A DNA stretch of 64,000 nt from an uncultured Actinomycetes bacterium (GCA_963802395.1 CAWDIP010000005.1:851363-915362), one strand, 5' to 3'; numbered from the stretch's first letter, positions 3,425 through 23,109 are shown. The notes: generated by a model from the letters alone, not told the origin. Program-made: numbers and translations.

Positions 3425-4962
3425 TCAATGCTCGATCGGCGGTCCCGCCAGCTCGCCGTCAGGATAACGCCACGCAAGGAGTAGGCCCACGCCGAGTGCC
3501 ACGCAGGCCGATACCCGGAGCCCGACATGCCCGCCGGCAACGAACGCGTCACGCACCGATTGGAGAAAGGCGTCGGCCTGCTCGGCTCCGAGGGTGTCGG
3601 CCATCCCTCGGGCCACTCCCGCTGCCCGACCGACATTGCGTCGTGCCTGCTCCGCCAGTTCGGGAGGAAGCGTGTCGAGCGCGCCAGCTACGCGACTGCG
3701 GTAGACCGACGTCACCACGCTGCCCACGATGGCGATTCCGATCGCTCCGCCGAGCTCGCGGGTGGTGTCGTTCACGGCTGAGCCGACACCTGCCTTGTGC
3801 ATCGGAACGCTGCTCATGATCCCGCCCGTGAACGACGGCATCGTGACGGCCATTCCGGCCGCGATCACGACAAGGGTGCCGGCGATGAACACGTAGGACG
3901 TGCGCTGCCCGCACAGCGACAAGCCGAACAACCCGGCGGCGGCGAGCATCGGACCGACCGACACGCATCGTTTGACGCCGAATCGTTTGGCGATGGCTGC
4001 GGACCTCGGCGACACGATGATCATCGTCACGGCGAACGGCAAAGACGCCACCCCGGAATGCAGCGCGCTGTATCCCCTCACGTACTGCAGGAACTGGGTG
4101 AGGACGAAGAAGGTCGAGAACATCGCGAGGAACATGCACGTGATCCCGATGCTCGAGAACGTGAACCGCGGCAGCCGGAACAGACCCATGTCGAGCATCG
4201 GCTCGGCGATGCGTCGCTCCCATGCCACGAACCCGGCGAGGCCGAGCGCTGCGACGAGGAAGCTGCCGCTGACGAGACCCGAGGTCCAGCCTTTCTCGGG
4301 GCCTTCGATGATGGCGAAGAGCAACGCGCTGAAACCCACAATTGACAGCACGGCCCCGACCGGATCGAGCTTCACCGCCCGCTGCTCCTTCGACGTCGGG
4401 GCGAGCATCCAGATCATGACGAACGCGACGGCGGCGATCGGCACGGCGACGAAGAAGACCGAGCCGTACCAGAACCGCCCGAGCAGAGCGCCGCCCATGA
4501 TCGGCCCGATCGCGCCGCCGGCGCCGGCGAAGCCGGCCCACGTCGCGATGGCCTTTTGACGCTCGTGCGGCGGGAACACGCTCGTGAGGAGCGAAAGCGT
4601 CGCCGGCATGATGAGTGCGGCGCCGACTCCCATCAACGCCCGGCAGGCGATGAGGACGTTCGGCGACGACGACTGACTGCAGAGCACCGAGGCCAGCGCG
4701 AAGATCACCAGACCCAGGAGCAGCGCCCCTTTCGTCCGAAACGGTCACCGAGTGCCCCCGCGAACAGCAACAGCCCGGCGAAGACGAGTGCGTAGGCGTC
4801 GACGATCCACAGGATCTGGGTGTCCGTGGGCCGAAGTGTTTCGGCGAGCGTCGGGATGGCGACGTTCACCGAGCTCACCGACGCCACCACCAGCACGAGG
4901 CTGAGGCAGAGGGCGCCCAGGATGTACCACCGCCGCTGATAAGCGTGGGGTTCGATCCCGAA
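3425..4962 (-). CDS. MFS transporter, EmrB/QacA (14-TMS drug:H+ antiporter) family; frameshifted near 4728-4745
   Basis: Two minus-strand ORFs (4705..5373 and 3425..4708) join into one MFS protein. The N-terminal part reads MVNETMVESFGIEPHAYQRRWYILGALCLSLVLV...GDRFGRKG, then the frame changes at a CCCCTTT run and continues ALLLGLVIFALASVLCSQ...RALMGVGAALIMPATLSLL. The total length is about 510 aa, typical for this family. Confidence 0.75.
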
Positions 4963-5026
4963 GCTCTCCACCATCGTCTCGTTCACCATCGCCCCTCCAA
5001 ATTCCCGGCCGCCACCGTACCGCCAC

Positions 5027-5081
5027 CCCTTCTGATCGCGTTTGGACGGCACCTGGGGTGCGCCGAACGCACCAAGAATCG
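5027..5081 (+). repeat. copy A of conserved ~57-nt intergenic element (CCCCTTCTGATCGCGTTTGGACGGCACCTGGGGTGCGCCGAACGCACCAAGAATCG), in the 5' leader of fixB
   Basis: About 80% identical to the copies at 12774-12831 (same orientation) and 8504-8565 (inverted). It lies about 60 nt upstream of the fixB ATG. Confidence 0.6.
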
Positions 5082-5143
5082 AAGCCGGCAGCGCGGCGAC
5101 CCCGCCTGGTCGACCCGGGGAGCGGGTCGGTAGCCTCGCCTCG

Positions 5144-20260: not shown

Positions 20261-21102
20261 CGCCGGTTCATCCCTTCACCGCTCCGGCGGTGAGGCCCCG
20301 CACGAGTTGGCGCTGGAACACCATCAGCACCAGGAAGATCGGCACCGCGGCGATGACCGTGCCGGCCCACACCAGGTTCGGCCGGTCGAGGGCGGACGAC
20401 CTGCAGGAGCTTCAGCCCGGTCTGCACCGTGTTCATGTCGTTCTCGGTCGTCACGAGCGACGGCCACAGGTACTGGTTCCAGCTCGAGAGGAACGAGAAC
20501 AGGCCGAGGGCGCCGAGCGTCGGGCGGACGAGCGGCACGGCGACCTCACGCAGGAACCCGAAGTGCCCGAGGCCATCCATCACCGCGGCTTCCCGGAGAT
20601 CCTTCGGCAGCTGCAGGAACACCTGGCGCAGCAGGAACGTGCCGAACGCGGTGGCGAGGAACGGCGCGGCGAGGCCCTGGTAGGTGTTGAGCCAGCCGAG
20701 CGAGTCGACGGTACGCCGGTTGGCGACGAGCGTGGCCTCGAGCGGGACGAGCAGGGTCGACGAGGAACACGCCGAACAGCAGGCCTCGGCCCGGAACTTC
20801 AGGAACGCGAACGCGTAGGCGGACAGCACCGAGGTGACCAGCTGGCCACGGTGACGATGACGGCGACGACGCCGGAGTTGAACAGGTAGCGACCGAGGCG
20901 GCCTTCGCGCCACGCGTCCTGCGGAACGTGCCGAGGTCGAACGAGTCGGGCACGAGCGGGCGCTGCAGCACCCGGTTGCCGGGCTTCAACGAGGCGATCA
21001 CCATCGTGTAGATCGGGAACAGCACGATGAACGCGACGACACAGCAGCAGCGCGTAGCGCACCGACGCGCCGCCACCCGCGCGGGAACGCGTCAATTGCC
21101 AT
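20261..21102 (-). CDS. carbohydrate ABC transporter permease (UgpE/MalG-like); frame-disrupted
   Basis: An EAA-loop region, VLSAYAFAFLKFR...LVPLEATLVANRRTVDSLGWLNTYQGLAAPFLATAFGTFLLRQVFLQLPKDLREAAVMDG...LSSWNQYLWPSLV. The C-terminus AGTVIAAVPIFLVLMVFQRQLVRGLTAGAVKG is in another frame, and the N-terminus VVAFIVLFPIYTMVIASLKPGN is in a third. Confidence 0.65.
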
Positions 21103-22003
21103 AGTGCACCCGCTTCTCGACGCCCGCGGAACTGCAGCGCCGACAGCACCAGCAGCACGAGGAACAGCAGCACCGCGGCGGCCGATTGCAGGCCGTCGTT
21201 GTTGCGGATGACCGACTCCCGGCCGTAGATCGAGGTAGGTCAGGCTGGTGGTCGAGTTCTGCGGGGCCGGGCCGCCGTCGGTGAGCAGATCGAACTCGCC
21301 GTAGGCCTGGAAGGCCCGACTGGTGAGCACCACGGTCGGCGAACAACAGGGTGGGGGCGAGCATCGGCACGGTGACGTTGGTGAACCGCCGCCAGCCGCC
21401 GGCCCCGTCGACGAACGCGCTCTCGTAGAGCTCCTTGGGCACGCCCTGCAGCCCGGCCGTCACCACGATGAACGTGAAGCCGAGGTTGGCCCAGATGAAG
21501 CTGATCGCCGGTGGCGGTGAGCGCCGTGCCCGGGTCACGCAGGAGGCCGGGCTGCTTGATCACCGGGAAGAGGTCGCGTCAGCCAGCCGATGCTCGGCAG
21601 CACCCCGACGCTCGGCTGCAGGAGGAAGAACCACATCAGCGAGGCCACCGCCACCGACGTGGCGACGGTCGAGGAGAAGATCGTGCGGAAGATGCCGATG
21701 CCTCGGACGTAGCGGTCGGCGAGCACGGCGAGCGCCACGCCGAGGAAGAGCCCGCGTCGGCACGGTGATGCAGCGCGAACTTGACCGTGACCGCGAGGGC
21801 GTGCTGGAACTCGTCGGAGCGGAACACGTCGACGTACTGGTCCCAGCCGTTCGATCGGCAGTTCTTGCCGGCGTTGTCGCACCGCATGGTGGCCGATCCA
21901 CACCGACCGCGCCGAGCGGGTAGAGCACGAAGGGCCGAGCACGAGCAGCGACGGCCCGAGCAGCGCCAGCGCCAGCGACGCCGCTCGTTGCGGCGCGCTT
22001 CAT
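21092..22003 (-). CDS. carbohydrate ABC transporter permease (UgpA/MalF-like); frame-disrupted
   Basis: N-terminus MKRAAT...STMRCDNAGKNCRSNGWDQYVDVFRSDEFQHALAVTVKFAL. Central part FIWANLGFTFIVVTAGLQGVPKELYESAFVDGAGGWRRFTNVTVPMLAPTLLF. C-terminus AFQAYGEFDLLTDGGPAPQNSTTSLTYL. These are spread over 3 frames, and the ATG overlaps the ATPase stop. Confidence 0.6.
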
Positions 22004-23014
22004 GGCTCGAGCCGGCGGCCGGTCTCGGGGTCGAAGTGGTGACGACGGTGGGCCCAGGCGTCGAGCCGGATCTTGTCGCCCACCCGCGGGATGTCGGCGT
22101 CGGCCGCCATCCGCACCACCACCTTCGAGTAGTCGTCGACCGCGCACACCACATGGACCTCGTGGCCGAGCTGCTCGACCAGCACCACCGTGACCGGGAG
22201 CCGGCCGTCGTCGTTGATCGGTGAGGTGTTCGGGCCGAACGCCCACGAGGTGGTTCCCCGGTTCGAGCGAGCCGGCCGGGAAGATGTTCATGGGCGGCGT
22301 GCCGAGGAACGTGGCCACGAACACGGTGCCGGGCTTGTCGTAGACCTCTTGCGGCGTGCCGACCTGCTGGAGCACGCCATCGGCCATCACGGCGATGCGG
22401 CTCCCCATCGTCATCGCCTCGACCTGGTCGTGGGTGACGTAGACGAACGTCGTGGCGAGCCGCTGATGAAGGGCCGTGAGCTCGGCTCGCGTCTCGCCGC
22501 GCAACTTGGCGTCGAGGTTCGACAACGGCTCGTCCATGCAGAAAACTGCCGGCTCACGCACGATCGCACGGGCGAGGGCGACCCGCTGACGTTGGCCACC
22601 CGACAGGGCTCCGGGCTTGCGGCCGAGGTAGGGCGTGAGTCCGAGGAGCCCGGCTGCCTGTTCGGCTGCGCTGGCTCGCACCTTCTTGTCGACGCCCCTC
22701 ACCTTCAGCGGGAACTCGATGTTCGCCCGCACCGTCTTGTGGGGGTACAGCGCGTAGCTCTGGAAGACCATGGCGACGTCACGAGCCTTGGGCTCGACGT
22801 CGTTGACCATGCGATCGCCGATCCACACCTCGCCATCGGACGGGTCCTCCAGGCCGGCGATCATGCGCAGCAGCGTCGACTTCCCGCAGCCCGATGGCCC
22901 GAGCAGGATCATGAAATCGCGATCGGCGATGTCGAGCGACACCCCGTCGACCGCGGTCACGTTGCCGAACCGCTTGGTGATGCCGACCAGCCGTACTTCT
23001 GCCACGACGGGCAC
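22000..23014 (-). CDS. sugar ABC transporter ATP-binding protein (MalK/UgpC-like); one frame disruption near 22190-22230
   Basis: Walker A GPSGCGKST, LSGGQRQRVALARA, Walker B VFCMDEPLSNLD and H-loop VYVTHDQ are in the long ORF. The TOBE/MalK C-terminal domain (VVLVEQLGHEVHVVCAVDDYSKVVVRMAADADIPRVGDKIRLD) is in the adjacent frame. Confidence 0.75.
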
Positions 23015-23109
23015 CCTAGTGCGGTGCTCCCACCCGTTCTTCGAGTCGACACCGAGGCTTCACCCAGGCCGGTCGATCTCGACTCGTCGCGGAGCGTCGA
23101 CCTAGCCTG

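Follow-up and report, generated by a model that had tools for sequence, protein, structure and literature searches.

Residual errors in long-read assemblies are mostly associated with homopolymers (PMC12007338, Kastor); in PacBio assemblies of high GC content, deletions of C or G predominate (PMC8574707, ARAMIS). In real pseudogenes of a high-GC genus, by comparison, the ratio of insertions to deletions was 0.76 by count and 0.18 by length, with a mean deletion of about 19 nt (PMC6054270). Here we examine a stretch of 64,000 nucleotides (hereafter the window; GC content 65-74%) from an uncultured Actinomycetes bacterium (GCA_963802395.1, CAWDIP010000005.1:851363-915362), in which mycofactocin-linked genes, an aldehyde dehydrogenase (AldDH) gene and a sugar ABC transporter operon are broken by frame changes. 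The disruptions very probably stem from local consensus errors of the deposited assembly rather than from gene decay, and the real genes of the organism are most likely whole.

The window resembles long-read (PacBio or Nanopore) assemblies with insertion or deletion (indel) errors in that its genes are split by indels of 1-2 nt but are whole apart from these, errors accumulate in GC-rich parts of a high-GC genome, and truncated products have been deposited as real proteins. Unlike the published long-read errors, about 88% of the isolated events in the window are insertions and about two thirds lie at non-repeated positions; moreover, they are packed at the extreme density of about 1 per 60-90 nt, and only over some 13-17 kb. 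With the decay described for leaf-nodule Burkholderia symbionts (PMC6054270) the window has in common that several frameshifts occur per gene and that neighbouring genes are hit together. However, that decay is deletion-biased and features larger indels, nonsense mutations and a relaxed ratio of nonsynonymous to synonymous substitution rates (dN/dS), none of which is found in the window. The gene content is like that of a mycofactocin neighbourhood: corrected MftE, mft_etfA and mft_etfB match NCBIfam equivalog models, and MftF matches its model over the full length. None of the four genes mftA-D was found among the genes examined (1-8.5 kb and 24-35 kb), the window not having been searched exhaustively for the small mftA and mftB.

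Extent of frame disruption

Reading frames were tracked with a frame plot of GC content at third codon positions (GC3) and a codon-usage Viterbi segmentation, complemented by homologues. Segmentation yielded 63 switches between frames of the same strand in 8618-22300 and none in 22.3-50.7 kb, and according to both methods frames are long and stable in 1-4.7 kb and 22.3-50.7 kb. The dense zone spans 9380-22220, and frame switches there are 100-300 nt apart. To the left of it lie three further events (at 4727, about 5620 and 5906), beyond a clean stretch of 3.5 kb (5907-9379). Matches of single open reading frames (ORFs) to Pfam profiles are partial (Aldedh 77-294 of 461; Zn_peptidase 118-198 of 290), and proteins stitched across the frame switches match the full profile length (MftE, MftF, EtfA, DUF4395).

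The original prediction had described pervasive but regionally clustered disruption at 4700-23100. The clustering is real, and each gene listed there as disrupted is indeed split (MFS transporter, fixB, PQQ propeller, mftE, mftF, DUF4395, racemase-fold gene, DUF418, YpfJ peptidase, AldDH and the four ABC genes), including the two breaks in fixB, which encodes a mycofactocin-associated EtfA, and the four in the PQQ propeller gene. The range needed refinement: the dense part is limited to 9380-22220, and fixC, fixX, etfB and a family-1 glycosyltransferase (GT) gene are whole inside the region. That 23-50 kb is intact was borne out by the lack of Viterbi switches and by full-length family matches of genes in 24-35 kb (ung, tag, sigma factor).

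Relatives used for comparison

Intact window proteins (P0001, P0126) are 100% identical to proteins recorded on a single public contig of 946,672 bp (NCBI/ENA). Their nearest named relatives are metagenome-assembled genomes (MAGs) of Acidimicrobiales/Acidimicrobiia, with 50-80% amino-acid identity. When a species-representative genome collection was queried with the GT protein, no close genome was found; the only relatives retrieved had 48-57% identity and lacked synteny, and were therefore unusable for DNA comparison. A metagenome scan with the GT protein gave no match, and a chimeric PQQ-MftE-MftF protein used as query retrieved distant PQQ proteins only. As comparators we used the DNA of short-read contigs that encode 80-91% identical proteins and were found via the protein database. 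All are syntenic with the window at a DNA identity of 72-81% and represent related species, not the same strain:

L009 (Logan), 5.4 kb, covers 16.9-22.2 kb of the window
L011 (Logan), 9.0 kb, covers 13.3-22.4 kb
L013 (ENA), 5.8 kb, covers 14.3-20.2 kb
L015, L016 and L017 (ENA / Logan), 3.1-11.7 kb, cover 1-8.5 kb
L057 (JGI), 4.4 kb, covers 9.2-13.6 kb

Called genes are whole on L009, L011 and L015-L017, and the AldDH gene is split on L013. L057 was checked for integrity by listing its ORFs and by a match to DUF4395, which is covered in full. In the control regions 1-3390 and 5907-8473, alignment of the window with its relatives revealed in-frame or compensated gaps only.

Lesions are mostly single-base insertions

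Compared to L011 (81.2% identity over 9.1 kb), the window carries 67 one-base and 15 two-base insertions and 13 one-base deletions, many of the latter being paired with a nearby insertion in divergent stretches. When only isolated events were counted, i.e. those more than 20 nt from any other gap, 44 one-base and four two-base insertions and six deletions remained relative to L011, and 18 insertions and three deletions relative to L057. The pooled isolated events thus comprise 66 insertions and nine deletions (about 7:1; binomial p = 8e-12 against 1:1). This ratio also departs from the 0.76 of natural pseudogenes (binomial p = 7e-16). Lesions measure 1-2 nt, nearly all of them 1 nt, and there are no large deletions, insertion sequences (IS) or other mobile elements.

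The same insertions are present when the window is compared to the more distant L009 (22 of 25) or to L013 (27 of 28), and they therefore represent gains in the window lineage or record and not losses in the relative. Comparison with related genomes, one of the checks that the original prediction had proposed, accordingly showed the insertions to be absent from L009, L011, L013 and L057 alike. Three frameshifted products were traced in a public collection: a 484-aa ATPase with an out-of-frame tail, a 199-aa AldDH fragment and a 299-aa PQQ fragment. Each is a singleton that occurs only on the same 946,672-bp contig, which places the errors in the deposited record. Errors of the substitution type were undetectable; identity to L011 does not drop as event density rises.

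Corrected genes are under purifying selection

The window was projected onto the reading frames of L011, inserted bases were dropped, and eight broken genes were evaluated with the GT gene as reference. No in-frame stop was present in the approximately 2,540 codons of the eight corrected genes. Their products are 73-92% identical to those of L011 at the amino-acid level, with dN/dS values of 0.09-0.27. The dN of the broken genes is 0.05-0.18 as compared to 0.086 for GT, and DNA identity to relatives is alike in broken (79.7-81.3%) and intact genes (78.9%). A random substitution in these genes would generate a stop in approximately 2.4% of cases. Given about 90 indels and three neutral substitutions for each of them, 6.5 stops would be expected, and the probability of observing none is 0.0016, or less if more than three substitutions accompany each indel. 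The genes under the frameshifts are hence intact and under purifying selection.

Spatial pattern of events

Spacing of the events in the zone is overdispersed (coefficient of variation 1.6). The largest clean gap measures 1103 nt (P = 2e-4 under uniform placement) and corresponds to the GT gene. Further clean patches lie inside multiply broken genes, namely those for AldDH (16553-17214), permease 2 (20399-20758) and DUF418 (14423-14783); as these genes are already broken, selection cannot explain the patches. Both edges of the zone are intragenic: the PQQ gene is clean over its initial 760 nt, and so is the ATPase gene over its initial 830 nt. Damage thus does not follow whole genes, and the GT island alone fits a gene unit.

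Event density increases with local GC content (Spearman 0.41-0.56, p 0.001-0.03). GC content was rejected as the sole cause, since no events occur in 13 bins from the 23-50 kb segment whose GC content is at least 0.70; a regional factor must act as well. Neither tRNA genes nor flanking direct repeats, which might mark the boundaries of an island, were found at the zone. In comparison with orthologous sequence from the same related species, the zone (13300-22430) is offset in GC content by -0.7% and the left flank (1-8435) by -3.3% (Mann-Whitney p = 2e-5). This difference hints at a segment of different origin, history or abundance, such as a strain-variable region of lower coverage. In the ABC operon, differences of the GC>AT type occur at about half the frequency.

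Sequence context of inserted bases

Association with homopolymers is typical of Nanopore, circular consensus sequencing (CCS), 454 and Ion errors, yet it does not define them. In the L011 set, inserted bases fall in runs of length 1, 2 and 3 in 67%, 29% and 4% of cases, as compared to a background of 57%, 32% and 11% for runs of 1, 2 and at least 3; the L057 set follows the same pattern. Among 62 isolated single-base insertions, 40 are in runs of length 1 and four in runs of at least 3, no more than in the background. Enrichment of insertion sites in homopolymers, which had been proposed as a test of sequencing error, is ruled out by these run-length classes. The argument drawn originally from a single homopolymer (CCCCTTT) at the MFS frame change therefore does not extend to the insertions overall. 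At that site the relatives have a G between the Cs, and the CCCC run may have been created by loss of that G.

Of the inserted bases, 81% are G or C. They complement an adjacent base more often than expected, the contexts G[C]G and C[G]C together making up 17 of 62 (p ≤ 0.007). Codon phase of the insertions is near uniform (20/17/11; chi-square p = 0.27), with a slight excess of insertions adjoining third codon positions (37 of 48 versus 32 expected). Events occur on both coding strands.

Probable origin of the disruptions

The original prediction had named indel-type sequencing or assembly error on the one hand and genuine local pseudogenisation on the other. Error is strongly supported, as removal of indels of 1-2 nt restores stop-free genes under purifying selection. 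We consider the contig to be long-read derived because it amounts to 946,672 bp from an uncultured lineage. Extra single bases, occasionally two, would have been called into an otherwise intact gene cluster, and contig sequence would be poorly supported in the dense zone, which covers about 9.4-22.2 kb and has outliers starting at 4.7 kb. As candidate causes we consider that long-read depth was very low, that a single read or a handful of reads bridged this zone, or that polishing missed it; we infer that read depth or polishing is responsible. Clean patches of 0.3-1.1 kb would then be places with adequate support or polishing, and five isolated frameshifts in 50-64 kb, four of them likewise +1 shifts, would have arisen by the same process at a much lower rate. 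From what is known of raw-read error profiles, the pattern resembles raw single-molecule insertion noise that survives where depth or polishing is locally inadequate.

Several observations weigh against this explanation. Insertions that lie outside homopolymers and favour G[C]G and C[G]C contexts are unusual compared to published residual long-read errors. The boundaries of the largest clean island are almost exactly those of a single gene (GT), as would be expected from selection, and the GC offset of the zone differs from that of the left flank, so that the zone may have its own history. Finally, an 8-bp deletion affects the same AldDH gene in L013. These imperfect fits do not rescue genuine decay, according to which an accessory region (mycofactocin-linked genes, sugar ABC, AldDH) under relaxed selection would be pseudogenising while the GT and electron transfer flavoprotein (ETF) genes are kept. 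The sharp clustering of the events, the GT island, the GC offset and the AldDH deletion in the relative would all agree with such a process. It is nevertheless highly improbable in view of the complete lack of in-frame stops, dN/dS values like that of the intact GT neighbour, amino-acid identities equal to or better than its own, and an insertion bias of about 7:1 among almost exclusively 1-nt lesions where natural pseudogenes show a ratio of 0.76 and far longer deletions. Large deletions and IS elements are missing as well, and clean patches of 360-660 nt in already dead genes, like the intragenic zone edges, ignore gene boundaries.

An artefact of a mixed population is also unlikely, although less so than decay. 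Here, related strains or a low-abundance strain would have been collapsed into one consensus, and misaligned variant positions emitted as extra bases. Such an origin fits the distinct GC offset, which would mark a segment of different origin or abundance, the position of insertions outside homopolymers, and their slight excess beside third codon positions. On the other hand, the codon-phase distribution is not significantly non-uniform, no direct sign of a second haplotype was seen in the window, and the zone does not differ from its surroundings in identity to relatives. Regional DNA modification, e.g. a methylated island that derails base-calling into systematic extra-base calls in G/C contexts, would account for the preference for GCG and CGC, the prevalence of inserted G or C, and the increase of event density with GC content. 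We regard it as very doubtful, however, as no single motif covers the sites, the adjoining 28 kb of error-free sequence are rich in the same G/C contexts, and no island boundary features were found. That the insertions are real or report something real, be it a very recent insertion-only burst in a segment of about 13 kb or a modified island that induces extra G/C calls, likewise has little probability. The chance of biological recoding by programmed frameshifting, transcriptional slippage or RNA editing is negligible: the underlying reading frames are conserved, which is not specific to it, but up to about 15-25 events would be needed in one gene, the sites lack slippery or homopolymeric sequence, and orthologues in three related populations do without the extra bases.

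Consensus error in the record means that about 15 genes of a public MAG have been deposited as truncated or chimeric proteins, among them mftE, mftF, the AldDH gene and a complete sugar ABC transporter. Such entries would be miscounted as pseudogenes or novel families, and because of them completeness, pseudogene load and metabolic potential would be misestimated. Error and decay can be separated without reads if short-read relatives are combined with indel direction, in-frame stops and dN/dS. For builders of polishing tools, the signature to look for is insertion-biased, not linked to homopolymers, GC-dependent and patchy at 0.3-1 kb.

Genes of the disrupted region

The genes between 3425 and 23014 are arranged as follows:

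3425-4990, minus strand: MFS transporter (Pfam MFS_1); frame switch at 4726/4727, a single nucleotide missing at about 4727 compared to L015 and L017
5118-6035, plus strand: mycofactocin-associated EtfA ('fixB'); net +1 shift in 5608-5629 and, at 5906, one cleanly inserted nucleotide (compared to L015, L016 and L017)
6038-8456, plus strand: fixC, fixX and mycofactocin-associated EtfB; intact, in the clean patch 5907-9379; P0126 100% identical, 434 aa
8584-10130, plus strand: PQQ-like beta-propeller; breaks at about 9380, 9701, 9879 and 10016, insertions relative to L057
10131-10790, plus strand: mftE; at least three frame switches (about 10288, 10378 and 10551) according to Viterbi segmentation and the L057 alignment
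10791-12250, plus strand: mftF glycosyltransferase; at least nine frame switches (Viterbi), 16 single-base insertions relative to L057
12237-12800, minus strand: DUF4395 gene; frame-broken, indels relative to L057
12895-13815, plus strand: Ala_racemase_N-like gene (PF01168 on the stitched protein); at least five frame switches (Viterbi), indels relative to L057 and L011
13812-14967, plus strand: DUF418 / acyltransferase-3 membrane protein; frame-broken by eight single-base insertions, L011 orthologue intact (389 aa)
15015-15981, minus strand: YpfJ-type Zn peptidase; frame-broken, one ORF matching Pfam Zn_peptidase in part only
16024-17488, minus strand: AldDH; 14 single-base insertions in 16159-17361, among them 16159, 16204, 16261, 16339, 16435, 16461, 16486, 16525 and 16553, and one deletion, 661-nt clean patch
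17546-18646, minus strand: family-1 GT; intact, P0001 100% identical, 366 aa, largest clean island in the zone
18746-20271, minus strand: ABC sugar-binding protein; 23 frame-breaking gaps
20268-21102 and 21092-22003, minus strand: two ABC permeases; both frame-broken, with insertions in 21040-21910, among them 21040, 21060, 21232, 21334, 21505 and 21577
22000-23014, minus strand: ABC ATPase; one insertion at 22220, the right edge of the zone, inside the gene

Stitched EtfA matches NF038209 (mft_etfA) over positions 1-300 of 303 with 351 bits (cut-off 240), and stitched MftE matches TIGR03964 over 1-216 of 228 with 242 bits (cut-off 172). For stitched MftF, the match to TIGR03965 covers 11-466 of 467; its 276.3 bits are borderline with respect to the curated cut-off of 280, presumably due to residual frame errors. 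Pfam DUF4395 is matched over 1-130 of 130 by both the stitched protein and the intact L057 orthologue. The intact fixC-fixX-etfB block has no unpaired indels relative to L016 or L018 and gives NCBIfam matches to FixX and TIGR04503, the latter with a score of 230 for mft_etfB (cut-off 200). Ungapped tblastn with P0246-P0248 followed the PQQ propeller through frames 1>3>1>2>3. The genes mftE and mftF adjoin the mycofactocin-associated etfA, fixC, fixX and etfB and the PQQ-like propeller gene (5118-12250).

After correction, none of the following genes contains a stop: the DUF418 gene (80% amino-acid identity), the YpfJ gene (92.3%; dN/dS 0.09), the AldDH gene (90.7%; dN/dS 0.11), the sugar-binding protein gene (81%) and the two permease genes (87-88%). 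GT, with no frame-breaking indel in 17529-18632, shows 86.8% amino-acid identity to L011 and a dN/dS of 0.13. In L013, which is 98.8% identical to L011, the deletion of 8 bp that splits the AldDH gene is located at position 3460 (5650 in L011). Either genuine variation within the population or misassembly of the relative could explain it.

Other observations in 50-64 kb and the flanks

At least five further frameshifts were detected in 50-64 kb. Four of the five are +1 shifts, and in each case one profile or homologue spans two frames:

50460-51712, minus strand: class-V aminotransferase; split at about 50728, Pfam Aminotran_5 2-288 and 290-371 in two overlapping ORFs
54039-57927, plus strand: DUF6603 gene; +1 shift at about 57070, Pfam DUF6603 1-370 and 372-460 in two ORFs
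57972-63810, plus strand: two large genes (about 630 and 1250 aa); +1 shifts at about 59417, at about 60880 and in 61472-61567

Junctions in the two large genes are spanned by single homologues, P0270/P0271 following frames 1>2 and P0269 frames 2>3>1. The whole segment 54039-63810 is a run of very large genes (homologues of 600-1250 aa) with no Pfam match besides DUF6603. A junction at about 52705 was considered as another frameshift and rejected, as no homologue spans it; a true gene boundary probably lies near 52705-52800. In one reading frame, 52650-52705 encodes a short peptide repeated in tandem, IVIELLVVIELLVVIELL, which suggests a DNA tandem repeat at this gene boundary.

In the left flank, a TetR-family regulator gene of about 635 bp lies between the VTT-domain and MFS genes of L015 (6772-7407) and of L017 and is absent from the window (3390-3440). 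The etfA-fixC-fixX-etfB operon is bracketed by a 55-nt inverted repeat with 80% complementarity (5030-5084 and 8502-8556), whose arms have the boxes TTCTGATCGCGTT and ACGCACCAAGAATCG in common, and which is a candidate operator. A 20-nt exact match to one of its arms is located at 1556-1575 of L015, just upstream of a gene for an HTH_67 regulator.

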